Below the pieces are notes generated by a model that had not been told where the DNA came from, did no database searches, and worked only from the letters and a program-made list of their open reading frames with translations. This document shows, in pieces, positions 4,912 to 51,248 of a stretch of 64,000 nt of DNA. Numbering within the stretch: the first letter of the stretch is position 1; each line of letters begins with the position of its first letter. The DNA is from Dehalococcoidia bacterium (GTDB lineage Bacteria > Chloroflexota > Dehalococcoidia > SZUA-161): contig JACWAE010000025.1 of the NCBI GenBank assembly GCA_014874385.1, positions 3,910 through 67,909 on the forward strand, written 5' to 3'. The position numbers and the translations under genes are program-made.

Positions 4912-4916
4912 GATGT

Positions 4917-5429: not shown

Positions 5430-5458
5430 GGTATCTTTAGTAAGGCCAGCGCATTACA

Positions 5459-5655: not shown

Positions 5656-6354
5656 GTGATTTTGTCAGATCTCGATGCACTTCAAGCTATCCTCGGCGTT
5701 AACTTTAAGGATGAGTCTCTCCTCCGGCAAGCTCTTGTCCATCGCTCCTACCTGAACGAAAACACCGCCTTACACTTAGCCTCCAATGAGAGGCTTGAAT
5801 TCTTGGGGGATGCCGTGCTGGGCTTTGTTGTTGCGAATGAACTCTATTCACGCTTTCCGGATTTCTCAGAAGGGGAATTGACCAAGCTCAGGGCAGCATT
5901 GGTGAGGGGAGAAACCTTAAACCGCATCGCAGCATCGCTGCAGCTTGGAGACTATCTGTATTTGGGGCATGGCGAGGAAGAGAGCGGAGGTCGCTCTCGG
6001 TCCAGGAATCTGAGCTGCACCCTGGAGGCGGTTATCGGGGCTGTGTTTCTCGATGGGGGACTCGATGCGGTGGAAAGCTTCATCCTGAAGTTGCTGAATA
6101 GCGAGTTGGATGGAGTAGTTGAGGACAAGTTTGCGGCCGATTACAAATCCAGGCTGCAGCAGATCATTCAATCGGAGCGTAAAATAACGCCTGTTTATCG
6201 GACCATAGAGGAAGTGGGCCCTGACCACGCCAAGGTCTTCACTGTGGAGGTGCTGGCAGGAGATATGATACTCGGCCGAGGCAGTGGCAGGAGCAAGCGG
6301 GCGGCAGAGGTGGATGCAGCACGTCATGCGTTGCAGGGCTTGGTGGGAGGCTAA
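5656..6354 (+). CDS. rnc: Ribonuclease III
   Basis: 'NERLEFLGDAVLG' RNase III signature plus a C-terminal dsRBD ('GPDHAKVFTVEV...GSGRSKRAAE'). GTG start. Confidence 0.92.
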   Translation: MILSDLDALQAILGVNFKDESLLRQALVHRSYLNENTALHLASNERLEFLGDAVLGFVVANELYSRFPDFSEGELTKLRAALVRGETLNRIAASLQLGDYLYLGHGEEESGGRSRSRNLSCTLEAVIGAVFLDGGLDAVESFILKLLNSELDGVVEDKFAADYKSRLQQIIQSERKITPVYRTIEEVGPDHAKVFTVEVLAGDMILGRGSGRSKRAAEVDAARHALQGLVGG

Positions 6355-6359
6355 GAGAC

Positions 6360-7280
6360 ATGTTTGGCCTTTTTAAGAAGACTGAAAAAGGGGTAAAACG
6401 TAGCCGAGAGGCTTGGTGGGGTAAGGTTGTGCATCTTTTCGACCGACCCACATTGAGCGACGAGCTTTGGGACGAACTCGAGGAGCTTCTTATCTCTGCT
6501 GATGTGGGTGTAAACACGACTGGCAAGCTCATTGAACGGCTTAAACAGAGGATAGAGAGAGAGAAGATCAAAGAGGCTTCCCTGGTAAGAACTGCTCTGA
6601 AAGAGGAGATAGTTTCCATGTTGATGGTGGGAGGCGGAAAGCTCTTGCCATCTATAGACGGAAAAATAGGCGTAGTTCTTGTAGTGGGGGTCAATGGGGT
6701 GGGCAAGACTACCAGCATCGCCAAGCTTGCGTATAGCTACAAGGAGCAAAAGAAACGAGTGCTTCTGGTTGCTGGCGATACCTTCAGGGCGGCAGCCATA
6801 GACCAGCTTAAGGTGTGGGGGGAACGAATAAAGGTCCCCGTGATCGCTCATCAGCCCGGCGGCGACCCTGCCGCAGTGGTCTTCGATGCCTTAGAGTCAG
6901 CGAAGAAAAATGCCGATATTGTCATAGTTGATACCGCAGGCCGTCTCCATACGAAGTTCAACCTCATGGAGGAGCTCAAAAAAATCAGGCGGGTGGTGGA
7001 TAAAGCTAATATGGAGCCCCAGGTACTGCTTGTACTGGATGCCACCACCGGGCAGAACGGTTTGACCCAGGCCAGATACTTCACTGAGGCGGTAAAAGTC
7101 ACCGGTATACTGCTGGCGAAGCTGGATAGCACAGCAAAGGGTGGAATTGTCCTCGCTATCTGCGATGAGCTCAAGATACCCATCTTTTACATTGGCACTG
7201 GCCAGGAGCTGGAGGATTTTGCCCCCTTCAATCCTGAAGAGTTTGTGGAGGCTCTATTTTCCCGTGAGGACCAGGCTTGA
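6360..7280 (+). CDS. ftsY: Signal recognition particle receptor FtsY
   Basis: SRP GTPase motifs 'GVNGVGKTTSIAKLA', 'DTAGR' and 'AKLDSTAKGG'. Confidence 0.92.
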   Translation: MFGLFKKTEKGVKRSREAWWGKVVHLFDRPTLSDELWDELEELLISADVGVNTTGKLIERLKQRIEREKIKEASLVRTALKEEIVSMLMVGGGKLLPSIDGKIGVVLVVGVNGVGKTTSIAKLAYSYKEQKKRVLLVAGDTFRAAAIDQLKVWGERIKVPVIAHQPGGDPAAVVFDALESAKKNADIVIVDTAGRLHTKFNLMEELKKIRRVVDKANMEPQVLLVLDATTGQNGLTQARYFTEAVKVTGILLAKLDSTAKGGIVLAICDELKIPIFYIGTGQELEDFAPFNPEEFVEALFSREDQA

Positions 7281-8470: not shown

Positions 8471-8549
8471 TAGCCGTTCCGACCAAAGGGTTGTTTCACA
8501 GATTCGCAGCCTTTGCTTGAGCTATATCGCCGTGCAGGGTCTTTGCTAG

Positions 8550-10730
8550 ATGATTCAGATAGCATATGCCATAATCTGGTGGCTTATCCTGCTGGTTATC
8601 GGCCTGATAACGTTTCCCCTGGTCTCCAGGGTATGCGGCGGGCTGCTGGATAAAGGCTACTCCGTTTCTAAGATCCTGGGTATCCTGCTCTTCACCTACT
8701 TCTCCTGGCTGCTTGCCAGCCTGCACCTGCTCAAGTTCGGGTCCCTCAACATCTCCGTCGCGCTGCTGCTTTTGCTGGCGCTCTCCTTCTACGTGGGCAG
8801 AAATAATTTGAGCCTGAAGAATCTGCCGCTGAGAAAGATGTTGATCAGTGAAGCAGTTTTCTCGGCGGCTTATGTCCTGTTTCTAATCTTCTTATTCTAC
8901 ACGCCGGATATCGGCTTTGCTCATTCAGAGGATTTTATGGACTTCGCATTCATCCAGTCCATCACACGAAGCGGCTATTTCCCACCTCCCGACCCCTGGC
9001 TTGCTGGCCAGAGCATCCCCTATTACTACGGCGGGCACATGGTCGCTGCTGTTCTGATGATGATTTCCAGGGTGCCTCATGGCATTGCCTATAACCTGGC
9101 GGTAGCCATGTTCTTCGCTCTTACCTTGTCCGCTTCATTTGGTATCGGGTACAACGTTACCAAGAAAAAGCTATACGGCTTTGTCACCGTTATCTTCGTT
9201 GGCGTGATAGGGTTTCTTTCAGGGGCATTCCAGGCTGCTGCATTCTTCCTTCATCGAGATGTCATGGGCTATTATCCCGTAAGTGCACCCAACTTCTTCG
9301 GATGGTTGCATTCCTTCGATTTCATATCTGCCAACTGGTTGATAAAATTCGCGGCAATGCGCAATCCCTTTTATGCCTTCCTGGTAGGAGACCTGCATTC
9401 GGATGTGACCGATATTCCCTTCCAGCTTTTGTTTATCACTCTCATCCTTGCCGTGTTCCTGGCTAAGAAGAACGAACTCGATGGCAGGACTGCAAAATCC
9501 GATTCGTTGCTGACCGTTATTATCCTGGGCCTCAGCCTGGGGTTCCTTGCCTTTGTCGATACCTGGAGCTACCCCACCTATGCGCTCCTCGCCATACTTG
9601 CTTTCATACTGCTCAAGACGAACCTCGGCTGGAAAAAATTACTTGGTGTCATCGCCCTGAGCATCATTTTCTATCTGCCCTATCATCTCACCAGGGGCGC
9701 CGGTGGCTTCAAAGAGATAGGTATAGTCACTCATAGGACGGAATTGCTGGAATTTATCGATGTTTTTGCCCTGTTCTTGTTTGCTATGTTCTCATTCCTC
9801 TACGTTGCATTCAAAGGCAGGTTGTTCAAGGGAGAGACTCTTATTGTCGTGATGGTTTCGACGATTGTTATTGCCTCAATCTCTTTCTTGTTACATTTCC
9901 AGCTTCTATTAATCCTCATACCTCTGATTCTGGTGCCTCTGTATTGCATATATAAAGCGCGTGAAAAGAGAGAGACAGAGTTTATGCTGACATTAACGCT
10001 CACTGGAGCGTTGATCGTGCTCTTCTGTGAGGTATTCTACATCGCTACTCCTCTTGGCGGAGACTTCGCGAGATTTAACACTATGACACACCTCTATGTG
10101 CAGATATGGATTCTCTTCGCTTTGGCGGCGGCGTACGCTGTCTACTGGGTGCTGAACAATACCAGGAGTGGACTGAAGATCGTGTGGATAGTCTTACTCT
10201 CTCTACTTGTGCTGGCATCCTTGATTCAGCCGATTGGCCTTGTCACTGAGTGGACAAGCGAGGCACATGACTATTTCGGAATTAACAGGGGCACACTGGA
10301 TGGGCTGGCTTACGTGAAGATAATAGCGCCGGGCGATTACGAGGCAATTAACTGGATAAACGAACACATACAGGGTTCTCACGTCATATTGGAGGCGCCC
10401 GGCCCATCTTATGAGTTTACGTCGCAAATCGCGACGATGACGGGATTGCCTACGGTCATCGGCTGGACGAATACCCATGAAGTGATGTGGAGGGGAAATT
10501 GGGATAAAGTAGCAGGGCGAGATACGGACGTAGATAATATTTACAAATCTCCGGATAGCGTTGAGGCTCTTGTTTTGCTGAGGAAGTATAATGTCGAATA
10601 CGTGTATGTGGGGAAGATGGAAAAGGAGACATACCCGGCGGAGAGCTTGCAGCAGTTTGCCAGCCATCCCGAGAAATATAAGCTGATTTATGAGAACCAG
10701 GGCGCCGTTATATATCAAGTGATGCCGTAG
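8550..10730 (+). CDS. DUF2298 / Chlor_Arch_YYY-domain membrane protein
   Basis: 726 aa and highly polytopic. Contains the hallmark 'SIPYYYGGH' motif of the Chloroflexi/Archaea YYY domain family and a C-terminal soluble domain. Confidence 0.7.
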   Translation: MIQIAYAIIWWLILLVIGLITFPLVSRVCGGLLDKGYSVSKILGILLFTYFSWLLASLHLLKFGSLNISVALLLLLALSFYVGRNNLSLKNLPLRKMLISEAVFSAAYVLFLIFLFYTPDIGFAHSEDFMDFAFIQSITRSGYFPPPDPWLAGQSIPYYYGGHMVAAVLMMISRVPHGIAYNLAVAMFFALTLSASFGIGYNVTKKKLYGFVTVIFVGVIGFLSGAFQAAAFFLHRDVMGYYPVSAPNFFGWLHSFDFISANWLIKFAAMRNPFYAFLVGDLHSDVTDIPFQLLFITLILAVFLAKKNELDGRTAKSDSLLTVIILGLSLGFLAFVDTWSYPTYALLAILAFILLKTNLGWKKLLGVIALSIIFYLPYHLTRGAGGFKEIGIVTHRTELLEFIDVFALFLFAMFSFLYVAFKGRLFKGETLIVVMVSTIVIASISFLLHFQLLLILIPLILVPLYCIYKAREKRETEFMLTLTLTGALIVLFCEVFYIATPLGGDFARFNTMTHLYVQIWILFALAAAYAVYWVLNNTRSGLKIVWIVLLSLLVLASLIQPIGLVTEWTSEAHDYFGINRGTLDGLAYVKIIAPGDYEAINWINEHIQGSHVILEAPGPSYEFTSQIATMTGLPTVIGWTNTHEVMWRGNWDKVAGRDTDVDNIYKSPDSVEALVLLRKYNVEYVYVGKMEKETYPAESLQQFASHPEKYKLIYENQGAVIYQVMP

Positions 10731-38931: not shown

Positions 38932-39422
38932 TATTTCTCAGATGCCCCTTCCTGCTTAGCTTTCTTGGGGAAAAGGTCTTCCACAGCCTTTGTGGTTAGC
39001 TTGCCGATGGTCTCCTCATTAATTTTCATGGCCGGAGCCATAGAGCAGGCTCCTATGCAGGCTACGGTTTCCAGGCTGTACTCGCGGTCTGGAGTCGTCT
39101 CACCCACTTTCAAATTCAAGGCGCGCTCGATAGTTTCCAGGATACGTTCCGAGCCGCGCACGTTACAGGCATTGCCCCGGCACACCGCAACCATCCTTTT
39201 ACCCACTGGCTTCGTCCTGAACTGCGCATAAAAGGTAGCTACTCCATAGACCACATTTGCCGAGACACCCGCCAGTTCCCCGATCTCCTCCATCGCCTCC
39301 AGAGGCAAATAGCCCAGTTTCTGCTGCACCGCCTGCATGGCCGGTATCAGCACAATCTGGCGCCCCTTCAATGGGGCGATTACATCTCGTGTCTGCTTTC
39401 GTACATCGGTCTCCGTTACCAC
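38931..39422 (-). CDS. NuoE/HydC-like 2Fe-2S subunit
   Basis: 'VCRGNACNVRGS...CIGACSMAPAM' NuoE-type cluster motif. Overlaps the start of the NuoF-like gene by 1 nt. Confidence 0.85.
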   Translation of the reverse strand: MVTETDVRKQTRDVIAPLKGRQIVLIPAMQAVQQKLGYLPLEAMEEIGELAGVSANVVYGVATFYAQFRTKPVGKRMVAVCRGNACNVRGSERILETIERALNLKVGETTPDREYSLETVACIGACSMAPAMKINEETIGKLTTKAVEDLFPKKAKQEGASEK

Positions 39423-39682
39423 TGGTTCCCTCCGGTTCCTCGCTTCCCTTTCTTTTCAGATACACAAAAAACTTGGCGGTCGTTCGCCAAGTACCCTAAG
39501 AGATTGCTGATGGTTCTGCCATATACACTTGAGCCAGCGCGGCACTTTGAGTCAATAATCAAATGAACAATGAAACGGGTCATACCAATAGGGAAGCCTG
39601 CCAGATTCGATTTTCCTTGAAGCAACTGCTCGGAAAACATTATAGCCCCCGAGTATATTCAAGTCAAATTCGCACACTGAGA

Positions 39683-39735
39683 GGTTCAGTTAAATCGTGG
39701 TTGATTGCCGCGCTGCCTACTATTTAGAATACAAC
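39683..39735. repeat. Left terminal inverted repeat of the cassette
   Basis: GGTTCAGTTAAATCGTGGTTGATTGC-CGCGC-TGCCTAC-TATTT-AGAATACAAC. Confidence 0.7.
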
Positions 39736-39757
39736 AGCATCCAGTTGCCTAACCCTC

Positions 39758-39786
39758 TTGACAAATTGTCAACACAATGATATTGT
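39758..39786 (+). promoter_or_regulatory. Candidate promoter with an overlapping perfect palindrome TTGACAAATTGTCAA (putative operator)
   Basis: TTGACA (39758-39763), 17-nt spacer, TATTGT (39781-39786), then ATG at 39793. The palindrome 39758-39772 overlaps the -35 element. Confidence 0.4.
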
Positions 39787-39792
39787 TGTGTC

Positions 39793-40230
39793 ATGATACC
39801 AGAACTTGTAGATATTGGTGCAACCTGGAGAGTGCTGCCTCCAGGGATACACGATGCGACTTTAACCTAGATTGAGTATCGCTTTGCGACGAATGAAAAA
39901 CGCAGAGGCCTATATAGAGGTCTTTTGGCAGGATGCAACTCCTTAAAATCTGCTGGATGCAGGGTTGTTTACTTGGATGGAAGCTACGTGACAGAGAAAC
40001 CAATCCCCAGGGACTTTGATGTCTGTTGGGATCCGACGGGGGTTGAACCTGGTAGGCTCGATCCTGTTCTCTTAGATTTTGATAATCTACGAAGAAATCA
40101 GAAACTGAAGTACGGAGGCGAATTTTTCCCGTCTAGTGCAAGAGCTGATGGAACCCATAACTTTGCTGACTATTTTCAAACAGACCGAGATACGGGGAAG
40201 AACAAAGGAATCATACGCATCCGAATCTAA
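39793..40230 (+). pseudogene. DUF6932-like (MNT/pol-beta fold) nucleotidyltransferase interrupted by an in-frame TAG at 39868-39870
   Basis: 'MIPELVDIGATWRVLPPGIHDATLT*IEYRFATNEKRRGLYRGLLAGCNSLKSAGCRVVYLDGSYVTEKPIPRDFDVCWDP...' is one frame. It has a 'DGS...DFD' NTase motif and a single stop codon. Confidence 0.6.
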
Positions 40231-40254
40231 TGAGCAGAGAGGGGAGGGGGAGAA

Positions 40255-41559
40255 ATGATTAGTAACGAACGGCAGTATCTGGTAACAAAGCAACAGCTTA
40301 AGAAACTTCGTAAAGCTATTAGAGAATTCAATTTGAAGGAAGTTGCAGAGCGTGTAGGCTCAGATATACTTGCGACAGCGGAATTGAGCGCTCTCAAAAG
40401 TGAGGAGATATCTCTAGCGGATCAAGTGAAGGAATATGATGCTCTCCGTACTGGTGAGATCACAATACTCGAGGCTACGGATTTGAGAGAGCTGCCAAAG
40501 ATTCTTATCCGCGCAAGAATAGCTCAGGGACTGACGCAACGCGATTTGGCTGAACTTGTTGGACTCAAGGAGCAACAGATTCAGCGATATGAATCGGATG
40601 AGTATGCAACTGCAAATCTGCGTCGCCTCGGTGAAATTGCAGGAGCGTTGAAGCTCAACATTACTGAGATCGCAGAATTCAAGACAAAGCCTTCAACTAC
40701 GGAGATAGTAAGCCCAGGTGGGCTTGACTGGAACAGATTTCCTGCGAAAGAGATGTATAGAAGACAATGGTTTGAGGGCTTTAGCGGGTCATTATCTGAG
40801 GCTTTAGGGGAAGCCGACACGCTGGTGAGTGGTTTTGTTAAACGTGTCTTTCCTACGCTAGCAGGAGTGTTACATCGGAAACAGGTTAGGGCTGGTTCAA
40901 TCGTTGATGACTATGCTCTGTTAGCTTGGGAATGTAGAATTCTACATTTGGCAAGCAAAGTAGAGCTCAAACGTCGATACGAAGACGGATTGATTGATTC
41001 TAAATGGATTGCAGAACTTGCCAAAGAGAGCAGAAATGACAATGGCCCGCTACGTGCCAAGGAAAAATTGGCGGAAGTTGGTATTGCATTTGTGGTCGAG
41101 CCTCATCTAGTAAATACGTATCTAGACGGGGCAGCGTTGCTTCATGGCAAGGGGCCAGTGATAGGGCTAACGTTGCGATACGATCGTTTAGACAATTTCT
41201 GGTTCGTGTTGTTTCATGAGTTAGCTCATATCATAATACATCTGCGCAAGAGTAAGCTGGAAGGCATTTTTGATGACTTGGATAATATCAGCGCAGACAG
41301 ATTAACAAAGAAATTGGAGGATGAAGCGAATCATTGGGCTGAGGAAACCCTTATTCCAGAGGAGAAATGGAGTTGTGAATTAGCTCGATATACTAGGACT
41401 AGAGAATCGGTAATAGAAACAGCTAAGCACCTAAATATCCATCCTGCCATCGTGGCAGGTCGGATAAGGCGCGATGCCAATGATTACATAATTCTGAAAG
41501 ATCTTGTTGGGCAGGGTGAGGTTAGGAAACATTTTCCTGATGCTGGTTTTGGTAGATGA
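40255..41559 (+). CDS. XRE-family HTH fused to an ImmA/IrrE (M78) zinc metallopeptidase domain
   Basis: HTH 'IAQGLTQRDLAELVGLKEQQIQRYE'. HEXXH motif in 'FVLFHELAHIIIH'. 434 aa. Confidence 0.8.
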   Translation: MISNERQYLVTKQQLKKLRKAIREFNLKEVAERVGSDILATAELSALKSEEISLADQVKEYDALRTGEITILEATDLRELPKILIRARIAQGLTQRDLAELVGLKEQQIQRYESDEYATANLRRLGEIAGALKLNITEIAEFKTKPSTTEIVSPGGLDWNRFPAKEMYRRQWFEGFSGSLSEALGEADTLVSGFVKRVFPTLAGVLHRKQVRAGSIVDDYALLAWECRILHLASKVELKRRYEDGLIDSKWIAELAKESRNDNGPLRAKEKLAEVGIAFVVEPHLVNTYLDGAALLHGKGPVIGLTLRYDRLDNFWFVLFHELAHIIIHLRKSKLEGIFDDLDNISADRLTKKLEDEANHWAEETLIPEEKWSCELARYTRTRESVIETAKHLNIHPAIVAGRIRRDANDYIILKDLVGQGEVRKHFPDAGFGR

Positions 41560-41575
41560 GGAAGGGGGTGTGACA

Positions 41576-42661
41576 ATGAGTTTTAGTTCAGGGCAATATG
41601 TCCCTTGCCTTAGATGGAAGCAGGGAGAATATCAAGCATTGTCTCGACTGTCATCGAACGCTCAAGTAGCTATAGTACCTTTAATAGAGATCCCTGAGAT
41701 AGGGTACGATTTTGAAAGCGATACGAACTCGAAATCCATTGATGAACACTTATCAAAGTTTGCCAAGAGAGTCAAGGAGAAGTGGGGTAGGCATTGTTTG
41801 GTAGATATAAATATTATCCCACCCTCGGAACGTATGAATAATGGAGAGCATCCACTTGCATTCGTTTTTGAAGATCTAAGGGCGAAAAAGGTATCGGCGA
41901 TTCCAGTGATCAATCTTAAACAAGACTATGCCTGTCAGAATGAAATTAAGACAATTGTCGCCACTGATATGCGTGGGCTGTGCATTAGAATTGGCATAGA
42001 TGAGGCGATAAAGGCTGATTTAGCAGCTTCCTTGGAAGTACTTATTCAACGATATAACGTTGGTATTGACGAATGTGATTTCATTCTTGATCTAGGAGCT
42101 CCAAACTTCGAGCCAATAGGTAGCTTCGGGAATCTATTGGAGACAATCATTGGAAAACTACCGCACCTTAAGGAGTGGCGTTCGTTCGCGCTGATTGGTA
42201 CCTCTTTCCCCCAATCGATGGGTGGACTGCAATTGGGGGCATCAATTATTCCGCGAAACGAGTGGAGCCTTTATAAGTCCCTTATAGAGCGATTGATGCT
42301 TTCGGAAATTCGGATTCCGGCCTTCGGTGATTATGGGATTAATTATCCGGATATCTTAAGGATTGACCCGCGATTAACCAAACCATATGCTACTGTTAGA
42401 TATACGATTGAAGATGGTTGGTTAATAGTAAAAGGTCGCAATGTACGCGATTATAAATATGGTCAATATCGTGGACTATGTCAAGAAGTTATCGCGTCTG
42501 GGTACTATAGCGGAATAACGTTCTCGGAAGGCGACAAGTATATTCATGGCTGTGCGCAGGGCACTCAATCAACCGGGGGGCTTACGACGTGGCGCTGGGT
42601 TGGAACAAATCATCACCTGGAGAAAGTGGTGAAGGATGTCGCCAATTTATTCGCTTCATAA
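41576..42661 (+). CDS. Beta_protein (T4 beta protein)/sce7725-like family protein
   Basis: The N-terminal 'YVPCLRWKQGEYQALSRL' block and size (361 aa) resemble the Beta_protein/sce7725 family as I recall it. ATG 41576 is preceded by GAAGGGGG. Confidence 0.55.
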   Translation: MSFSSGQYVPCLRWKQGEYQALSRLSSNAQVAIVPLIEIPEIGYDFESDTNSKSIDEHLSKFAKRVKEKWGRHCLVDINIIPPSERMNNGEHPLAFVFEDLRAKKVSAIPVINLKQDYACQNEIKTIVATDMRGLCIRIGIDEAIKADLAASLEVLIQRYNVGIDECDFILDLGAPNFEPIGSFGNLLETIIGKLPHLKEWRSFALIGTSFPQSMGGLQLGASIIPRNEWSLYKSLIERLMLSEIRIPAFGDYGINYPDILRIDPRLTKPYATVRYTIEDGWLIVKGRNVRDYKYGQYRGLCQEVIASGYYSGITFSEGDKYIHGCAQGTQSTGGLTTWRWVGTNHHLEKVVKDVANLFAS

Positions 42662-43199
42662 GGTATTCCCTAATTGTTGCTCGCAGTTCGGACGAATCCA
42701 ATCTGCTAACAATACGAATGTACAGATTTGCGCGTTTCTCCCGTAACTGTTTTCCATGAATCCCTAAGTTCTCGAGAATCTCTCGGGCTTCGTTTCTCCA
42801 TAGTAGCTGAGCGACTGCATAGTTATCTACGCATGTATTACGTTTTGGGCGTCGTACGGTTTTAAAATTCACCGCCCCGCGTTGACCTTCTGTCACAGAT
42901 ATTATTCCCCACCATTCGGGTAGCATCGCTATTGCCTCGTTAAGATGTCGTTCAGCTACAATCACAAAAACACGGTCGAATACTGCGTTATAGCTAGCTA
43001 TCTGGCCATCTAATCTACGCAAAGAATCCACATCGCTCTTTATCTCATATCCGATCAGATGCCCATTAATAATTGCAATATCAGCTCTACACTTGCCATG
43101 GCGCAATCCTAATTCGTCGACCACTATGGTAGACGAGTCAAAATGGTGCTTGCGTAAGCACTTCTTATGAAAGCTAGTTCTGATTTGTAAATCGTTCAT
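42582..43199 (-). CDS. sce7726-like PD-(D/E)xK nuclease-fold protein
   Basis: 'VVDELGLRHGKCRADIAIINGHLIGYEIKSDVDSLRRL...VFDRVFVIVAERHL...PEWWGII' contains a D...E-x-K core. Its 3' end overlaps the convergent Beta-protein gene by 80 nt. Confidence 0.65.
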   Translation of the reverse strand: MNDLQIRTSFHKKCLRKHHFDSSTIVVDELGLRHGKCRADIAIINGHLIGYEIKSDVDSLRRLDGQIASYNAVFDRVFVIVAERHLNEAIAMLPEWWGIISVTEGQRGAVNFKTVRRPKRNTCVDNYAVAQLLWRNEAREILENLGIHGKQLREKRANLYIRIVSRLDSSELRATIREYLMKRINWRHPSPLSPGDDLFQPSATS

Positions 43200-43382
43200 T
43201 TGTTTTAATGTAGCTGCAATTGTTTGCCGAATTATACATTATAAGTCAAGCATATTCAAATACTAAGCGGCGCATGGCGAATTTCCTCATTCTTTCTTTT
43301 CACAAATTAGGGTTGATATGCCAAGAGCAGCAGTAGTGCCAGCAGTAGATAGGACTTTTCCGAGAAGCTAATTCAATATATC

Positions 43383-43433
43383 GTTGTATTCTACATGATG
43401 GTAGGCAGCAATCAACGACGATCTAACTGAACC
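43383..43433. repeat. Right terminal inverted repeat of the cassette
   Basis: The reverse complement reads GGTTCAGTTAGATCGTCGTTGATTGC-TGCCTAC-CATCATGT-AGAATACAAC. Confidence 0.7.
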
Positions 43434-43607
43434 ATCTGATATCTGCTCTTGTCATTTTTCTTGAATGAAGGTAAAATTATACATCGGGGGCTGGACTCAT
43501 CTCATCTGTCAATTTCCTGCACAGTTCTAGTATGGGATGTTGACGGTGTTATTCTTCTTAATTCCAACGAGCCCTGCCCACCTAGTGTCTTAAATATTGG
43601 AGGTAAA

Positions 43608-44459
43608 ATGTACCAAATCGTGACCAGGGAGGACCTTACCCCTGAGATCCACCTTTTCGAGATAATGGCCCCGGATGTCGCTAAGAAAGCTCAGGCGGGG
43701 CAGTTTGTTGTAATCAGGGTGGATGACAAGGGTGAGCGCATCCCGCTGACCATAGCCGATTGGAATCGGCAGAAAGGCACTGTTACCGTAGTCTTTATGG
43801 AAGTGGGCAAGACGACCCGCAAGCTGGCTACTATCAAGGCTGGCGAGTCTATCGCCAATTTCGCCGGCCCCCTGGGCCTGCCCACGCATATCGACAAGTA
43901 TGGCACGGTGGTCTGCGTCGCCGGCGGCTTCGCTATCGCCACCATCGTTCCCATAGCCCGGGCCATGAAAGAGGCAGGGAACAAGGTTGTCTCCATAATG
44001 GGTTTCCGCAATAAGAACCTGATGTTCTGGGAGGACCGCCTGCGCCAGTTCAGCGATGAGCTGATTATTACCACCGATGATGGCTCCTACGGACTCAAGG
44101 GGGTGGTCACAATTCCTTTGAAGGAATTGCTTGAGAGCGGTAAGGACAAGATCGGCCTGGTGGTCGCCATCGGGCCCACGGTTATGATGAAGTTCTCCTC
44201 GCTGACCACCAAGCCGTTTGGGGTGAAGACCATAGTCAGTCTCAACCCCATCATGGTCGATGGCACTGGCATGTGCGGTGTCTGCCGGGTATCTATTGAT
44301 GGCGTTACCAAGTTCACCTGCGTCGATGGGCCCGATTTCGATGCCCATAAGGTTGATTGGGACGAGCTTATGGCTCGGCAGCGTACCTATCTCGATGAAG
44401 AGAAGCGCTCACTCGAGCTCTGGAAGCAGAGCTGTAGCTGCGGGGGAGGTAAGACCTAA
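43608..44459 (+). CDS. nfnA: NfnA/SudB-like ferredoxin-NADP+ oxidoreductase small subunit (FAD/NAD-binding plus 2Fe-2S)
   Basis: 'FEIMAPDVAKKAQAGQFVVIRV...GERIPLTIAD' and 'GTGMCGVCRV...FTCVDGP'. ATG 43608 has a GGAGG RBS. The longer ORF from 43449 runs toward the cassette TIR and was not used. Confidence 0.8.
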   Translation: MYQIVTREDLTPEIHLFEIMAPDVAKKAQAGQFVVIRVDDKGERIPLTIADWNRQKGTVTVVFMEVGKTTRKLATIKAGESIANFAGPLGLPTHIDKYGTVVCVAGGFAIATIVPIARAMKEAGNKVVSIMGFRNKNLMFWEDRLRQFSDELIITTDDGSYGLKGVVTIPLKELLESGKDKIGLVVAIGPTVMMKFSSLTTKPFGVKTIVSLNPIMVDGTGMCGVCRVSIDGVTKFTCVDGPDFDAHKVDWDELMARQRTYLDEEKRSLELWKQSCSCGGGKT

Positions 44460-45862
44460 TGCCGGAAAAGCTGAACCTGAATAGAGTTGCTATGCCCAAG
44501 CAAGAGCCCAAGGCAAGGGCTGCGAATTTCAACGAGGTTGCTCTGGGATACCAGGCCGAGAACGCGCTGGCCGAAGCCAGCCGCTGCATTCAATGTAAGA
44601 AGCGCTCCTGCGTTGGTGGCTGTCCTGTGGGCGTGGACATACCGGAATTCATTGCGGCGCTGCGCGATAACAAAATGTCCGAGGCGGTGAAGGTGCTCAA
44701 AGGCAAGAACGCCCTGCCGGGTATCTGCGGGCGGGTCTGTCCCCAGGAGACCCAGTGCGAGGAGGTCTGCGCCCTGGCCAAGAAAGGCGCTCCTATCGCC
44801 ATCGGACGCCTTGAGCGCTATGTCGCTGACTGGGAGCTCGCCCAGCCCGCGACCTCGAAGCCCAAGCCGGAGATCGCTCCGCCGACGGGCAAGAAAGTGA
44901 TGGTAGTCGGTTCCGGCCCGGCGGGTCTCACCGCAGCCGCTGACCTGGCCAAGCGCGGCCATCAGGTCACCATCCGTGAGGCCCTGCACGTCGCCGGCGG
45001 GGTGTTGATGTACGGTATCCCCGAGTTCAGGATGCCCAAGCGTATTGTCCAGGCCGAGGTGGACTACGTGAAGTCGCTGGGTGTTGAAGTCAAGCTGGAC
45101 TCTGTAATAGGCAAGATAGCTACAGTCGACGAGATTCTTGCGGACGGGTATGATGCAGTATTTCTGGGCACTGGCGCAGGCCTGCCCATGTTCCTGCGCA
45201 TCCCCGGCGAGAACTACAACGGTATCTATTCTGCTAACGAGTTCCTGACTCGAACCAACCTGATGAAGGCTTACCTATTCCCCGAATACGATACCCCGCT
45301 CAGGGTGGGCAAGAGGGTGGCAGTCATCGGCGGCGGCAATGTGGCTATGGATGCTGCCAGATGCGCCCTCAGACTTGGTGCTCAGGAGGTCTATATCGTG
45401 TACCGGCGCAGCCGCACCGAGATGCCGGCACGGCGTGAGGAGGTCGAGAACGCTGAGGAGGAAGGCGTAATATTCAAGTTCCTCACCAACCCCGTGAAAT
45501 TCCTAGGCAACGACAAAGGCTGGGTCACCTCTATGGAGTGCGTGGAGATGGAGCTTGGCGAGCCCGATGCCAGCGGGCGCCGCAGCCCTGTGGTCAAGAA
45601 GGGCAGCGAGTTCAAGATGGATGTTGACATTGCAGTCGTAGCGCTGGGCACCACGCCCAATCCGTTAGTGCCGACTACCACCAAAGGTCTGGACACGACC
45701 AAGAAAGGCACTGTAGTTGCTGAAGAGGCGACAGGCAAGACCACCAAGACCGGTGTCTGGGCAGGAGGAGACGTGGTTACCGGCTCAGCCACCGTGATAA
45801 GCGCCATGGGCGCTGCCAAGAGAGCGGTAGCCTCCATGGATGAGTACCTGAAAGGTAAATAA
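44459..45862 (+). CDS. nfnB: NfnB/GltD-like NADPH-dependent oxidoreductase (glutamate synthase small-chain family)
   Basis: 'CIQCKKRSCVGGCPV', 'VMVVGSGPAGLTAAADLAKRGH', 'VIGGGNVAMDAAR' and 'VWAGGDVVTG'. Confidence 0.85.
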   Translation: MPEKLNLNRVAMPKQEPKARAANFNEVALGYQAENALAEASRCIQCKKRSCVGGCPVGVDIPEFIAALRDNKMSEAVKVLKGKNALPGICGRVCPQETQCEEVCALAKKGAPIAIGRLERYVADWELAQPATSKPKPEIAPPTGKKVMVVGSGPAGLTAAADLAKRGHQVTIREALHVAGGVLMYGIPEFRMPKRIVQAEVDYVKSLGVEVKLDSVIGKIATVDEILADGYDAVFLGTGAGLPMFLRIPGENYNGIYSANEFLTRTNLMKAYLFPEYDTPLRVGKRVAVIGGGNVAMDAARCALRLGAQEVYIVYRRSRTEMPARREEVENAEEEGVIFKFLTNPVKFLGNDKGWVTSMECVEMELGEPDASGRRSPVVKKGSEFKMDVDIAVVALGTTPNPLVPTTTKGLDTTKKGTVVAEEATGKTTKTGVWAGGDVVTGSATVISAMGAAKRAVASMDEYLKGK

Positions 45863-45939
45863 CGTAGCGTCGCCACTCCTGTGGCGACGAGGAAGGTATT
45901 CTTCCATCGGCTCCCCCCTTTTTAAAGGCAACAATATAC

Positions 45940-45968
45940 TTGACAAATCACGTTTTCTGTGCTAGAAT
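45940..45968 (+). promoter_or_regulatory. Sigma70-like promoter inside IRL (TTGACA-N17-TAGAAT)
   Basis: Consensus -35 element, a near-consensus -10 element and optimal spacing, about 25 nt upstream of the transposase start. Confidence 0.5.
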
Positions 45969-45993
45969 GTAACCAAGAATAAAGAGGGAGTGA

Positions 45994-46947
45994 ATGAACA
46001 TGATTCCACAAAGCCTTCAAGAAGCTATCGTTTATTTCTCGGATGAACAGCACTGTCACGAGTTCCTCGCTGGTATGCGTTGGCCCGATGGCCCTGTATG
46101 CCCACACTGTGGTTCCAAGCAGGTATCTTTCCTTGAGAGGCAGCATCGCTTTCAGTGTACTTCCCGCCACGCCAATAGGCAGTTCACTGTTAAGGTTGGC
46201 ACAGTATTTGAGGACAGCCATATCCCGTTGAACAAGTGGTTGCCAGCCGTTTGGCTCATTAGTAATGCTAAGAATGGAGTCAGTTCCTACGAAGTCGCTC
46301 GTAGTCTGAAGGTTACTCAAAAGACAGCCTGGTTCATGATGCACAGAATACGTTTGGCTATGGGAGTTGACAATGGCAAATTCTCTGGCACAGTCGAAGC
46401 CGATGAGACTTTCATTGGTGGTAGGGCTGTCAATATGCACAAGGCCAAGAAAGAAAAGGTTATCAAAGGCCGTGGCACTATCGGCAAGGTCGCTGTCATG
46501 GGACTGCTTGAACGGCACAATCTTGACGATATGCCCAGCAAGGTTCAAACCAAGATACTTGCCGATACCAGCCGAAATACAATTCCACCTGCGGTCAAAC
46601 AGTCGGTTGAAGCTGGCAGCAACCTTATCACCGATGCACTGTCTCCCTACGACAACCTGAATACCGAGTATGTCCATGAGGTGATTGACCATGCCGAGGC
46701 TTATGTTCGAGGCCACGTTCACACCAACGGCATTGAAAACTTCTGGAGCCTCTTGAAGCGAGCAATCAAAGGCACATACGTTAGTGTTGAGGCATTTCAC
46801 CTGCCCAAGTATCTTGACGAACAAACTTTCCGTTTCAACGCTCGAAAGACTAACGATGCTAACCGATTCGAGTCTGTGGTAGAAGGCATTACTGGCAAGC
46901 GATTGACCTATAATCAACTCATTGGGGCTGCTACGACGCCAGCCTAA
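45994..46947 (+). CDS. IS1595 (ISXO2-like) family transposase
   Basis: N-terminal zinc ribbon 'CPHCGS...FQCTS', 'IPLNKWLPAVWLISNAKNGVSSYEVARSLKVTQKTAWFMMHRIR', and a DDE domain starting 'VEADETFIGG'. Confidence 0.9.
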   Translation: MNMIPQSLQEAIVYFSDEQHCHEFLAGMRWPDGPVCPHCGSKQVSFLERQHRFQCTSRHANRQFTVKVGTVFEDSHIPLNKWLPAVWLISNAKNGVSSYEVARSLKVTQKTAWFMMHRIRLAMGVDNGKFSGTVEADETFIGGRAVNMHKAKKEKVIKGRGTIGKVAVMGLLERHNLDDMPSKVQTKILADTSRNTIPPAVKQSVEAGSNLITDALSPYDNLNTEYVHEVIDHAEAYVRGHVHTNGIENFWSLLKRAIKGTYVSVEAFHLPKYLDEQTFRFNARKTNDANRFESVVEGITGKRLTYNQLIGAATTPA

Positions 46948-46961
46948 GAGGGGGAAAGCAA

Positions 46962-47153
46962 GTGGCAAAAGCAAAGAAAGACGAACTCCCAGAACAAGAG
47001 GGTAATTCTGAGTTTCAGCGTTTCGACCAAATACTCCGTAAAGTCGTCTCTGTTCCCAAGACAGAAATTGAACGACGTGAGTCTCAGTGGAGAAAGCACA
47101 AAGACAAAACGAAAAAATTGGAACAGGGGCAACACGCTGATAAGGACAAATAA
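46962..47153 (+). CDS. Small Lys/Glu-rich hypothetical protein
   Basis: 63 aa, GTG start 14 nt after the transposase stop, preceded by GAGGGGG. No homology recognised. Confidence 0.35.
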   Translation: MAKAKKDELPEQEGNSEFQRFDQILRKVVSVPKTEIERRESQWRKHKDKTKKLEQGQHADKDK

Positions 47154-47163
47154 TCATTACTCA

Positions 47164-47565
47164 TCACTTCTTTGCCAGAATGATTAAAACAGCGACCAAG
47201 GCGAGAAGCCCCATAATAGCCACCCATGCATCCTTATTCCCCACCCGCTCTGCCTCTTGCTTTTCCTTGTCGAGCATGTCATTAAGCTCTTGCAACTCTG
47301 CGAGACTGATTGTGTGAGAGTTGATTCTGTCAAGGAGATATTGCTTCCGTGGTGACATGCCCGGATTAGGCAAAATACCTCTCTCTACGTAGTATTTGAC
47401 TATTTCGAGTTGGTGGATAGTTACCAGTGGAATGAATTTGCCATCCATCTTATTGAGTTTTTCCTCTAGTCTGTTTAGTCGGTACTCAATTCGGGCGAAA
47501 AAACCGCCAGCACCGAAAGCTAAAATAACCAGCGTGATTACAATGCCTAAATTCATGCCCATCAT
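47164..47565 (-). CDS. Hypothetical 2-TM protein with a central coiled-coil
   Basis: 133 aa. N-terminal TM ('LGIVITLVILAFGAGGFF') and C-terminal TM ('WVAIMGLLALVAVLIILA'). Lies 26 nt downstream of the HEPN gene. Confidence 0.55.
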   Translation of the reverse strand: MMGMNLGIVITLVILAFGAGGFFARIEYRLNRLEEKLNKMDGKFIPLVTIHQLEIVKYYVERGILPNPGMSPRKQYLLDRINSHTISLAELQELNDMLDKEKQEAERVGNKDAWVAIMGLLALVAVLIILAKK

Positions 47566-47591
47566 CCCCCACCTTAAATCTTAAGGCTTAA

Positions 47592-48395
47592 TCACTCTTT
47601 CAACTTCGTGGCAAGGTGTCGCATGAATCCTTTGACTGCGTTCCAAATATCTTCTGCCTGCTCTTCTGTATAGACCTTCTCGACATGCATAGTAGGATTC
47701 CGCCATGCATCTTTGACAGCTCGGAGCATACCAGTCGCGCCAGAGAAAAACACGTCGTCTACCTGCCATTCTGGAGAACGCTGTGCTAGTCGCTTGGTAA
47801 GTTCTGAATCACACTTCGTCAGAATAGCATCCCAAGTTGGGTTTGTAGTCGGAGGCAATTTAAGTGTATCCCCTAGAACCCGAAGGGCTACCTCCATAAC
47901 ACGCATTAAGTGAAATACACAAGCCGTTGCTCTATGATAGGCTAGACAATGGGATGCTTCTTCAATATCAAATCGTGCCTCCGGGAAATTCAGAAATACG
48001 TCCTCCCCAAAGTGATGTATATCCCCTCTGGCTAATTGAAGTTCCTCGAAGTTAAGATGTAAGAATACTTGGTTACTTAACTCAATATCTAGTGCTGTTT
48101 GCAAAGCCCTAGCTGTGCTAGGGATTTCTTCGCCTTTTTGTGAGTCAGCCAAAACGTCTAAAAGTTGTCGCATGAAGCCAAGTGAAACAGGAGTGAGAGA
48201 GATCTTTTCAGTGAGAGAGAGCTTCTCAAAGTAACGAAGTGACTTACTCAAAAATTCACGTAACTCGGTAGCTGTTTCAGGGCTAATGTTCCCATGTGAA
48301 GAAGCGAGGCTATCCAGCACTATGAATAGTCGTCCATATAGCTCAGGGCGGAAAATCTTCACAAGTTCTCCCAAAGTGATATAATGGTTGCTCAA
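47592..48395 (-). CDS. HEPN-domain protein (Rx4H motif)
   Basis: 'AVKDAWRNPTMHVEK' carries R-x4-H. The preceding helix 'IEEASHCLAYHRATACVFHLMRVMEVALR' is typical of HEPN. TTG start. Confidence 0.6.
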   Translation of the reverse strand: MSNHYITLGELVKIFRPELYGRLFIVLDSLASSHGNISPETATELREFLSKSLRYFEKLSLTEKISLTPVSLGFMRQLLDVLADSQKGEEIPSTARALQTALDIELSNQVFLHLNFEELQLARGDIHHFGEDVFLNFPEARFDIEEASHCLAYHRATACVFHLMRVMEVALRVLGDTLKLPPTTNPTWDAILTKCDSELTKRLAQRSPEWQVDDVFFSGATGMLRAVKDAWRNPTMHVEKVYTEEQAEDIWNAVKGFMRHLATKLKE

Positions 48396-48470
48396 TTCTA
48401 ATCCCCCCTTCCGTGATTTGTCAACTATATTGTTGCCTTTTTAAAGGGGGATACAGGGGGATTACGTTAC

Positions 48471-48502
48471 GGGGCGTCCTTCCCGTACGGGAAGGACGCC
48501 CC
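48471..48502. repeat. 32-nt perfect palindrome GGGGCGTCCTTCCCGTACGGGAAGGACGCCCC
   Basis: 14-bp arms and a 4-nt centre. Part of a palindrome cluster upstream of mutS. Confidence 0.7.
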
Positions 48503-48519
48503 TGCTTTCTCCGGAATTT

Positions 48520-48569
48520 GTAGTTGCCTGATTTATCAGGCAGAATTGCCCAATGAATTGGGCAACTAC
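48520..48569. repeat. GTAGTTGCC...GGCAACTAC nested double-hairpin REP
   Basis: Outer stem GTAGTTGCC/GGCAACTAC encloses hairpins CCTGATTTATCAGG and GCCCAATGAATTGGGC. A second copy lies at 60972-61022. Confidence 0.7.
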
Positions 48570-48639
48570 TTTTCCAACAGCGACTATTACTGTAAAATGG
48601 GGGCTGTCTGGATTACTTGTTGGGTAGTCGGGATCAGAT

Positions 48640-48667
48640 GTAGGGGCAATTCATGAATTGCCCCTAC
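48640..48667. repeat. GTAGGGGC...GCCCCTAC palindromic REP unit
   Basis: GTAGGGGCAATTCATGAATTGCCCCTAC, a 28-nt perfect palindrome 17 nt upstream of mutS. Confidence 0.7.
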
Positions 48668-48683
48668 AAGACAGAGATCGAAG

Positions 48684-51248
48684 ATGACACCAGTTCGAAG
48701 CCAGTATCTCAAAATAAAGCGCAGCTATCCTCAGGCTATCGTCTTCTTCCGCCTGGGCGATTTCTACGAGACCTTCGATGAGGATGCCAGGCTCGTCTCA
48801 AGGGAGCTTGAAATAACCCTCACCTCCCGGGAGATGGGCAAGGGTCAGCGTTATCCCATGGCGGGGATACCGTACCATGCCCTGGACAACTATCTGGCCA
48901 AGCTTATCAATAAAGGCTACAAGGTGGCTATCTGCGAGCAGATGACCGAGCCCAAGCCGGGACGCGGTATTGTGGAGCGGGAGGTGGTGCGGGTGGTGAC
49001 GCCGGGCACGGTGCTCGAGCCCAACCTGCTCGAGACCAGGACGAATAACTACCTTGCTTCTATTGCTGCTGAAGGCGAGCAGGTGGGCATATCGTATATT
49101 GACATAACGACAAGTGAGTTCGCTACGACCCAGCTTCCCGCCGAAAAAGCCTTGCTGGAACTGGAACGGCTTCGCCCCTCCGAGCTGCTTGCCCCGAGTA
49201 ACTCCCGTTTCCCTCTGACATCGCAATCGGCGCCTGTGACCCCTCTTGAAGACCAGTGGTTCGAGCTCGATGTAGCGCAGCAGACCCTACTCGACAGCTT
49301 CAAGGCATCCACTCTCGAAGGCTATGGCTGTGCCCATCTGCCGCTGGCGATAAGGGCGGCGGGCCCGATCATGCATTATCTGGAGCAGACCCAGAAGGGT
49401 GTGCTGGGTCAGATAAACAACCTGAGTACCTATTCCACCGAATCATATATGGTTCTCGATGCTCAGACGCGCCGCAATCTGGAGCTGTTTCAGAGCAGCC
49501 GCCTGGGGCTGACCGCCGGCTCGCTGCTCTCTGTCATTGATTTGACCAAAACGCCGATGGGCGGCAGGCTGCTCAAGAGATGGCTGGGGCAGCCCCTCCT
49601 TGACATAAAGCAGCTTGAGCGCAGGCAGCAGGCTGTGGCCTGGTTCCAGTCGCCGCAGCGTGCTGAGGTCATCAGCCTGCTCAGCAGGCTCAGCGATGTA
49701 GAACGGCTGATAAACCGCGTGAGGGCAGGCATCGCCACTCCGCGCGAACTGGTATCATTACGCCGCAGCCTGGAGCAGTTGCCTAAGTTGAAGGCGATAT
49801 TGGATGTAGATGGTGTGTTGGAGTGGCTTTCCTCGGAGCTCAAGTCCTGCGAAGATGTGGTTTCGTTGATGTTAAGTGCCATCGTGGATGACCCTCCACC
49901 GGTGGTGAGTGAGGGCAATGTGATAAAGAGCGGCTTTTCCAGCGAGCTGGATGAGCTTCGCTCAGCTTCATCAAACGCCCGAAAATATCTGGCCGACCTG
50001 GAGCGCACCGAGCGCGATAGGACGGGTATCAAGTCACTCAAGGTGGGCTATAACAGGGTGTTCGGCTATTATATCGAGGTCACCTCGCCTCACCTGAGCC
50101 GTGTCCCTCAGGACTATATCCGTAAGCAGACGCTGGCGGGGGCGGAGCGCTATTTCACCCCGCAGCTCAAGGAGTACGAGTCGCTCATCCTCAATGCTGA
50201 GACCAGGATCGCTGAACTGGAGGGCTCTATCTTTCGCCAGGTTTGCCGCCAGGTAGGGGATTGCGGCGAGCGCATCCTGGGCATCGCCGCTGCTCTGGCG
50301 CAGATAGACGTTCTCTCCAGCTTCGCCGAGGTGGCAGTGAGGTACGGCTATGCCTGCCCCAGGCTGACCAATGATGACTCGATAACGATCGTCAACGGAC
50401 GCCACCCTGTGGTGGAGCGGGCGCTGACGGATGAGCGCTTCGTCCCCAACGACACCTATCTCTCGAATCAGGATGCCCAGCTCATCATCCTCACCGGGCC
50501 CAACATGTCGGGGAAATCAACCTATCTGCGGCAGGTAGCCCTCATTGTGCTCTTGGCCCAGATCGGCAGCTTCGTGCCCGCGGACTCTGCCACCATAGGG
50601 CTGGTGGACCGCATTTTCACCCGCGTTGGCCTTCAGGACGACCTGGTCACGGGACAGTCCACCTTCATGATTGAAATGGTGGAGACCGCCAATATACTCA
50701 ACAACGCCACTTCGAAATCGCTGATTATACTGGATGAAATAGGACGTGGCACTTCGACCTACGATGGCCTTTCCATAGCGCAGGCCGTGGCGGAGTACAT
50801 TCATAACCATCCCCGGCTCGGCGCTAAGACGCTGTTCGCTACTCATTATCACGAGCTGGTGGAGCTGGCTAACTTTCTGCCCCGTGTAAAGAACTACAAT
50901 ATCGCCGTGTCGGAGGAAGGCGGCAAGGTAGTCTTCCTGCGCAAGATAGTGCCCGGTGGCGCTGACAAGAGCTACGGCATACATGTGGCGCAGTTGGCAG
51001 GCCTGCCCAAAGCAGTGGTGCACCGCGCCGAAGAGGTCTTGACCGAGCTCGAAAGTAATGGCGACGTGAAAGTTGTGCCTGGATTCAAACCTCGTTCCAG
51101 ACAGAAGACTCCCCAGGAGCAGATTCCTCTATTTGGACAGAGGTCCCCTGTAACGGATGAAATCCTCAAGCTGGATATATCTTCGATGACCCCTCTGGAG
51201 GCCATCACCAAGCTCTATGAGCTGCAGCGCAAGGCGAATGAAGGGTAA
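48684..51248 (+). CDS. mutS: DNA mismatch repair protein MutS
   Basis: N-terminal 'TPVRSQYLKIKRSYPQAIVFFRLGDFYETF', Walker A 'GPNMSGKST', and 'DEIGRGTSTYDG'. Confidence 0.95.
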   Translation: MTPVRSQYLKIKRSYPQAIVFFRLGDFYETFDEDARLVSRELEITLTSREMGKGQRYPMAGIPYHALDNYLAKLINKGYKVAICEQMTEPKPGRGIVEREVVRVVTPGTVLEPNLLETRTNNYLASIAAEGEQVGISYIDITTSEFATTQLPAEKALLELERLRPSELLAPSNSRFPLTSQSAPVTPLEDQWFELDVAQQTLLDSFKASTLEGYGCAHLPLAIRAAGPIMHYLEQTQKGVLGQINNLSTYSTESYMVLDAQTRRNLELFQSSRLGLTAGSLLSVIDLTKTPMGGRLLKRWLGQPLLDIKQLERRQQAVAWFQSPQRAEVISLLSRLSDVERLINRVRAGIATPRELVSLRRSLEQLPKLKAILDVDGVLEWLSSELKSCEDVVSLMLSAIVDDPPPVVSEGNVIKSGFSSELDELRSASSNARKYLADLERTERDRTGIKSLKVGYNRVFGYYIEVTSPHLSRVPQDYIRKQTLAGAERYFTPQLKEYESLILNAETRIAELEGSIFRQVCRQVGDCGERILGIAAALAQIDVLSSFAEVAVRYGYACPRLTNDDSITIVNGRHPVVERALTDERFVPNDTYLSNQDAQLIILTGPNMSGKSTYLRQVALIVLLAQIGSFVPADSATIGLVDRIFTRVGLQDDLVTGQSTFMIEMVETANILNNATSKSLIILDEIGRGTSTYDGLSIAQAVAEYIHNHPRLGAKTLFATHYHELVELANFLPRVKNYNIAVSEEGGKVVFLRKIVPGGADKSYGIHVAQLAGLPKAVVHRAEEVLTELESNGDVKVVPGFKPRSRQKTPQEQIPLFGQRSPVTDEILKLDISSMTPLEAITKLYELQRKANEG

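Follow-up and report, generated by a model that had tools for sequence, protein, structure and literature searches.

How does a group of genes that encodes no enzyme for its own movement come to lie between long, matching inverted ends? The question is raised by the segment 39683-43433 of a 64-kb stretch of a Dehalococcoidia contig, JACWAE010000025.1 (this whole stretch is called the window here, and coordinates refer to it unless another locus is named). The segment carries four genes between imperfect terminal inverted repeats (TIRs), and a first-pass annotation had offered two readings of it: a carrier resembling a miniature inverted-repeat transposable element (MITE) that moves a defence-like module, or genes inserted into an older palindrome. 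We conclude that it is very probably a 3.75-kb non-autonomous mobile insertion cassette (MIC) derived from an insertion sequence (IS) of the IS6 family, of the type with long zinc-finger transposases, and that its cargo is a predicted defence module. The features on which this reading draws are collected in Table 1.

Results

The ends of the segment read exactly as first described. Once the right arm is reverse-complemented, the two arms have five collinear blocks of identity (10, 5, 9, 7 and 10 nt), and 24 of the outer 26 nt match. In a repeat search, the outer 29 nt of these arms ranked first among the inverted repeats of the region (90%), with the inner block found separately, and a gapped alignment reaches about 52 nt by way of the blocks TGCCTAC and AGAATACAAC. 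With up to 3 mismatches allowed, the window contains just two occurrences of the 26-nt core, and 100 dinucleotide shuffles contain none. Aligned locally with gaps, the two ends score 58, compared with 14.9 +/- 2.2 (maximum 28) for shuffles, and so clearly survive the shuffled control that had been suggested for them; this score also ranks first among 3000 equally spaced genomic pairs. The repeats are far beyond chance. Inward-facing promoter-like sites (TTGATT, 16-18 nt, TAGAAT) lie inside both arms, which would explain why the inner block AGAATACAAC is conserved, and these sites may add transcription into the cargo. The repeats had also been said to delimit an AT-rich segment exactly. The drop in GC content is genuine, yet it extends over the intergenic flanks beyond the repeats (39423-39682 and 43434-43607), which are AT-rich too, and this detail of the earlier description has to be given up.

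At 81-85% nucleotide identity, Dehalococcoidia and metagenome contigs carry the same 3.75-kb unit in no fewer than four further contexts that are unrelated; the window included, five distinct ones were seen. When 185,579 species genomes were scanned with the cassette tip, one locus was returned, L005, a contig from a Dehalococcoidia metagenome-assembled genome. Its cassette is 84.6% identical to that of the window, has an intact right arm and lies among other neighbours, between a nitroreductase gene and a thiolase-like gene; homology with the window stops at 43434, one base past the right tip. Further copies were found via contigs that encode close homologs of the beta protein of the cargo: one with an adh_short gene ahead of it and SNF2/DEAD helicase genes behind (L007), one adjoining methyltransferase genes (L008) and one after an abhydrolase gene (L010). 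A search for other copies of the termini had been proposed as a check on mobility, and the termini do travel with the cassette to all four of these loci.

In the L010 copy both arms are intact, homology to the window spans exactly 39683-43433, and the element is flanked by a perfect 8-bp direct repeat, CCGCTCTC. As this perfect duplication directly abuts the short arms, which occur with the same internal junctions at several loci, it was the already-reduced unit that moved. The 26-nt cores of the left arm of the window, of both arms of L010 and of the right arm of L005 are identical at 26 of 26 positions, in elements that differ by 13-18% overall; the tips therefore appear to be under constraint or selection. 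The octamers that flank the window and L005 elements agree at 5 of 8 and 4 of 8 positions, respectively, which is consistent with decayed duplications.

More distant cassettes (L012 and L017, ~76% nucleotide identity) have only 39752-43264 in common with the window, from promoter to promoter, and a search for TIRs of their own in L012, L016, L017 and the right end of L011 found none. Because L012 and L017 carry the cassette without the arms, the repeats are best assigned to the vehicle and not to the defence module. Viral contigs were searched for two patterns of the tip, for the beta protein and for the transposase described below, without a match. In L008 (~6281) and L011 (~3335-3370), which come from different assemblies, homology is lost at the same point, equivalent to 43301-43306 of the window; the two have a short unique sequence in common there and then diverge into different DNA. 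This common break could mean either that the right end was truncated in a common ancestor or that the right boundary exists in a variant form.

A source for the ends is suggested by a tip scan of metagenomes, which returned one locus, L006, ~150 bp upstream of a divergent 187-aa gene of the resolvase/invertase type. A longer contig that carries these genes too, L021, shows that the tip forms the right end of a 2601-bp element (3298-5898 of L021), with GGTTCAGTTAAGTCTTGGTTG as its left tip, GGTTCAGTTAAATCGTGGTTGA as its other tip and a perfect 8-bp repeat, CCAGAGTT, on either side. The left core of the window is identical to this right end at 22 of 22 positions. The element encodes (4319-5446) a 375-aa DDE protein with an N-terminal CxxC zinc finger, which scores 128.8 bits on the model NF033587 transpos_IS6 (cut-off 125; profile positions 3-202 of 202) and matches Pfam DDE_Tnp_IS240 (6e-20). 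Among all the loci compared, an IS6 transposase is present in the L006/L021-L023 set only. Taken alone, a 22-mer match could conceivably arise by chance in so large a collection; that it should by chance fall exactly at the terminus of an IS with the same duplication length is not conceivable. The promoter-like sites in the cassette arms resemble a further site, TTGAAT-17-TAGTAT, in the right end of the L021 IS.

The IS6 family is characterized by 8-bp target repeats and GG tips, and includes a zinc-finger clade with transposases of 340-350 aa (PMC7986276, PMC6807381). Direct target repeats of 8 bp flank both the L010 cassette and the L021 IS, and the GG tip is present in the cassette (tip GGTTCAGTTAAATCG). 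When the tip was compared with the end of IS6100, which we checked in plasmid pTET3, GGCTCTGTTGCAAAAATCGTG aligned to GGTTCAGTT----AAATCGTG, a result equaled by 35 of 5000 shuffles. Two further observations concern the surroundings of the L021 element. It sits 147 bp upstream of the 187-aa serine recombinase gene (6045-6608), whose product is without a recognisable C-terminal helix-turn-helix (HTH); homologs of it abound on short contigs, some of them named Chloroflexota, suggesting a repeated element. A second zinc-finger transposase that fits the IS6 model, 55% identical to the first, is encoded 2.6 kb further on (8542-9612).

The cargo can be recognized from profile matches. Genes for an Xre-type HTH protein fused to a peptidase, for a beta protein and for a cII-like protein are encoded together, as in systems of the Gop-beta-cII / PD-lambda-2 type; the 434-aa HTH/M78 protein is predicted to be the Gop or PD-lambda-2 B-like component, and the 361-aa Beta protein the PD-lambda-2 C-like component. 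The cII-like gene converges on the beta gene and overlaps its 3' end. A HigB-like first component (PD-lambda-2A) is missing, the first gene of the cassette being a DUF6932 gene interrupted by a TAG codon. PD-lambda-2 and gop-beta-cII have been shown experimentally to be anti-phage systems, and homologous systems defend against lambda and P1 (PMC9519451, PMC9122126). The cargo is, by homology, a self-contained anti-phage module of this type plus a DUF6932 gene, and its defence activity is what we infer from that homology. Pfam, NCBIfam and PADLOC scans detected no transposase or recombinase domain in any of the four genes, which bears out the earlier statement that the cassette encodes no transposase.

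The toxicity of the second PD-lambda-2 gene is neutralised by the first, which makes the loss of DUF6932 here curious. Translation of the window places an in-frame TAG at 39868-39870 (codon 26), where intact homologs, which are 146 aa long, have Asp (L007, L008, L010, L012) or Glu (L017, L005). The gene is inactivated independently in two copies, by the TAG in the window and in L005, where a ~125-bp MITE-like insertion (L005 2264-2399) with inverted repeats of 17-24 nt and a duplicated TTTAA lies a few bases from the equivalent of the window TAG; the L005 gene also carries a premature TAA. DUF6932 is intact in L007, L008, L010, L012 and L017.

The cassette also has candidate promoters of its own. 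A near-palindrome, CAACACAATGATATTGTTGTG (39766-39792), overlaps the promoter upstream of the first gene and is kept even in the TIR-less cassettes L012 and L017 (76% identity); it is probably the operator of the HTH-peptidase. The promoter-like site of the cII-like gene lies at the edge of the part that is common to the TIR-less cassettes, which ends at ~43264.

Homologs of NfnA place the host in the Dehalococcoidia. At the insertion site, relatives without the cassette are available for comparison. In L019 and L020, whose NfnA is 89% identical, both flanks of the window are adjacent and the cassette is absent. Alignment of the window without the element to L019/L020 across the junction scores 55, compared with 20 +/- 3.4, a score reached by 0 of 3000 shuffles and 0 of 2000 random window segments. 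The alignment includes a 13-nt indel at the junction, and we therefore regard L019/L020 as a convincing comparator that contains an indel and not as an exact empty site. No TIR-like sequence, half-site or hairpin was found in the L019/L020 junction. A further relative, L018, did not serve as an empty-site comparator, as synteny upstream of nfnA is not conserved there. The NuoE-like operon and nfnAB have divergent promoters, and the insertion point falls in the short gap that separates their -35 boxes; neither host promoter belongs to the element, and both are left intact.

In the window (39668-39682) and in L005 (2086-2100), exactly 15 nt separate the left cassette end from a TTGACT -35 box of a leftward host promoter, and no TTGACT motif is present at that position in L007, L008 or L010. 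This spacing could be a coincidence or a weak target preference. The homology between the window and L005 outside the left arm was considered and set aside: what aligns there is the -35/-10 region of the leftward promoters next to the cassette, and L019 is similar there too. An Rfam scan of 39000-49000 found no RNA family.

Table 1. Positions, in the window, of the cassette ends, the cargo genes and the neighbouring promoters
Feature	Position	Strand	Details
Left terminal inverted repeat	39683..39735	+	core 39683-39708, GGTTCAGTTAAATCGTGGTTGATTGC
Right terminal inverted repeat	43383..43433	-	core 43408-43433, 2 mismatches to consensus
Inward promoter-like site, left arm	39701-39730	+	TTGATT-18-TAGAAT; promoter scan
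Inward promoter-like site, right arm	43415-43388	-	TTGATT-16-TAGAAT; promoter scan
Putative target-site duplication, left copy, decayed	39675..39682	.	8 bp, CACTGAGA; 5/8 match to right copy
Putative target-site duplication, right copy, decayed	43434..43441	.	8 bp, ATCTGATA
DUF6932 gene, pseudogene in the window	39793..40230	+	Pfam PF22014 1.7e-32; PADLOC PDC-M63A 7.9e-11
Xre-type HTH and M78 (ImmA/IrrE) peptidase fusion, 434 aa	40255..41559	+	Pfam HTH_3, Peptidase_M78; PADLOC PD-Lambda-2_B 5.9e-87
Beta protein (phage P4 beta family), 361 aa	41576..42661	+	Pfam PF14350 3.9e-83; PADLOC PD-Lambda-2_C 8.8e-54
sce7726 / P4 cII-like protein, 205 aa	42582..43199	-	NCBIfam NF033832 1.4e-54; PADLOC cll 3.5e-35; Pfam Phage_P4_cII
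Cassette's own promoter	39758..39786	+	TTGACA-17-TATTGT, upstream TG; promoter scan; conserved in TIR-less L012, L017
Promoter-like site of cII-like gene	43231..43259	-	TTGAAT-17-TATAAT; promoter scan
Host promoter, NuoE-like operon	39639..39667	-	TTGACT-17-TATAAT; scan 11/12; conserved in L019; outside left end
Host promoter, nfnAB	43449..43477	+	TTGTCA-17-TAAAAT; scan; aligns to L019 TTGGCA-17-TATAAT; outside right end

A second insertion lies nearby. The AT-rich DNA between nfnB and mutS (45914-48450), absent from the relative L018, is bounded by 39-nt inverted repeats (45914-45952 / 48412-48450, 36/39; CCCCCTTTTTAAAGGCAACAATATACTTGACAAATCACG) and encodes an IS1595-family transposase (45994-46947) together with further open reading frames. 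It looks like a passenger-carrying element of the IS1595 type.

Discussion

The segment has IS-type repeats at both ends, passenger genes and no transposase between them, and copies at different sites, one of which (L010) has a perfect 8-bp target duplication. These are the marks of a MIC. Mobility of a TIR-bounded cargo with a defence-like module, as proposed at first, is borne out by the copies at unrelated loci, by the L010 duplication and by the Gop-beta-cII-type genes. As a class, however, "MITE" does not fit, since MITEs are a few hundred bp long and carry no open reading frames, whereas the cassette has 3751 bp and four genes.

We propose that a cognate DDE transposase of the IS6 family, encoded elsewhere, would bind the 22-26-nt tips of both arms and insert the cassette with an 8-bp target duplication, presumably in trans. 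By analogy with IS6/IS26 members, this would involve a copy-in cointegrate and its subsequent resolution by homologous recombination; the action in trans is suggested by the tips and the duplication length that the cassette and the L021 IS have in common. The window copy would have landed between the divergent -35 boxes without disrupting either promoter. With a duplication that matches at 5 of 8 positions, two substitutions in the right core and a nonsense codon in DUF6932, this copy has the look of a fossil, and it is probably old, partly decayed and immobile.

Several observations weigh against an IS6-derived cassette. The link to L021 consists of ~22 identical terminal bases and the same duplication length; further in, the arms of the cassette and of the IS are only marginally similar (past 22 nt, the similarity in a short window is reached by 13 of 3000 shuffles, and over 178 nt it loses significance). 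The tip reads CAGTT where the family logo has cTGTt, an A thus replacing a fully conserved T, and the L021 IS deviates likewise; in addition, TAAA stands for the family motif caaa. A tblastn search for an IS6-family transposase found none, either in the 64 kb of the window or around the other copies of the cassette, which leaves a cognate enzyme in the same genome hypothetical. A perfect duplication is seen in L010 only among the cassette copies, and the 5/8 and 4/8 matches of the window and L005 are weak on their own. L007 and L008 keep the left arm only, and the L011 contig shows only a truncated right end. Scans of two large collections for the exact tip gave one further locus each, so that the family must be rare or divergent. 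Finally, the group of long zinc-finger IS6-like elements is one without experimental data (PMC6807381), and the cointegrate route is an extrapolation to it.

Other origins were weighed against the same evidence. The segment could be read as what is left of a compound transposon: two full-length IS copies in inverted orientation would once have flanked the cargo and then lost their internal parts, and the structure seen today would never have been mobile as a whole. Pseudo-compound transposons are typical of IS6 members (PMC7986276), and both arms resemble the same promoter-bearing IS end over ~57 nt. The short arms and the same internal junctions recur at several loci, though, and at one of them a perfect duplication abuts the arms, and we consider it very unlikely that the structure never moved as a unit. 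As an account of how the cassette originated, the compound-transposon scenario may still be apt.

Mobilisation by a different transposase family with the same duplication length ranks next and is likewise very improbable. The IS1595 family also makes 8-bp duplications, and an IS1595-family gene that passes the NF033547 model lies only 2.5 kb away in the nfnB-mutS insertion. That transposase, however, resides in an element of its own whose 39-nt inverted repeats are unrelated to the cassette ends; no end of the GGTTCAG type is linked to this transposase, and the sole transposase found with matching tips is of the IS6 family.

It is also highly improbable that a small serine recombinase uses the repeats for crossover, the segment being either invertible or an excisable island with inverted half-sites common to attL and attR. 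This idea gains from the position of the sole metagenome tip match, L006, so close to a divergent resolvase/invertase-type gene. In L021, however, the recombinase gene lies outside the element, beyond the 8-bp duplication; the perfect 8-bp duplications of L010 and L021 are a mark of DDE transposition and not of serine recombination; and no serine recombinase is encoded in the window or in L005. Lastly, insertion of the cassette into the loop of a pre-existing, host-owned intergenic palindrome, the other reading first offered, can be dismissed almost with certainty: the repeats do lie in a divergent-promoter region, where palindromic operators are common, but several unrelated loci have this cassette between these very arms, the same tip ends an IS6-family element in L021, and the flanks are adjacent in cassette-free L019/L020 with no half-site or hairpin between them.

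An IS6-derived MIC with a defence cargo has close parallels and clear differences among known systems. Its nearest counterparts are the MICs themselves, MIC231 of the Bacillus cereus group, the qnrD MICs of Proteeae (PMC3913671) and the Tn3-type MICs with TALE genes in Xanthomonas (PMC4337579). They resemble the cassette in having IS-type TIRs around passenger genes, no transposase, a target duplication, copies at different sites and presumed mobilisation in trans; the cassette differs in its IS6-family ends, its anti-phage cargo and its Dehalococcoidia hosts. Within the IS6/IS26 family the comparison is above all with the group of long zinc-finger transposases (clades h/i of Varani et al., VII/VIII of Harmer and Hall) and with ISDsp3 of Dehalococcoides sp. 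BAV1. Likenesses are the 8-bp duplication, the GG tips, an end of the form GGnTCnGTT...AAA with some resemblance to IS6100, and the zinc-finger transposase encoded by the L021 element, whose tips are identical. Apart from the deviating tip base, the differences are that the cassette encodes no transposase, is 3.75 kb long as opposed to a typical 0.8-1.7 kb, and has arms of ~52 nt as opposed to 15-20 nt (28/36 in ISDsp3, which was compared by description only). Reviews of the family name only two MITEs and one passenger-carrying IS, ISDsp3 (PMC7986276, PMC6807381). The two MITEs, MITEBth2 and MITEHarch3, are non-autonomous and keep only the IS ends, as the cassette does, but are 227-336 bp long and without open reading frames.

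The cargo, in turn, resembles Gop-beta-cII of satellite P4 and PD-lambda-2 of E. coli in that models from PADLOC, Pfam and NCBIfam recognize its genes for the HTH-peptidase, the beta protein and the cII-like protein; it differs in beginning with DUF6932, here a pseudogene, in place of the HigB-like PD-lambda-2A, and its activity in this host is a prediction. Tn7-like transposons likewise spread defence genes as cargo, but encode transposition machinery of their own (PMC8649781), while the cassette encodes none. That defence genes ride on transposons and that MICs are mobilised in trans was already known, and the cassette is no new kind of element.

What the cassette indicates is that a complete anti-phage module can move among the slow-growing, hard-to-culture Dehalococcoidia on a minimal vehicle, one that is invisible to transposase-based annotation. 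A wider proposal is possible, if doubtful at present: long zinc-finger IS6-like transposases may mobilise multi-kb cargo in trans as discrete units in Chloroflexota, and the cassette family may be a dedicated shuttle that spreads the Gop-beta-cII-type module among Dehalococcoidia, with arms that supply inward promoters for the cargo. The cassette would add a cargo-carrying, non-autonomous derivative to the IS6 family, and its 26-nt tip and 8-bp duplication give something definite on which the zinc-finger IS6-like transposases could be tested functionally for the first time.

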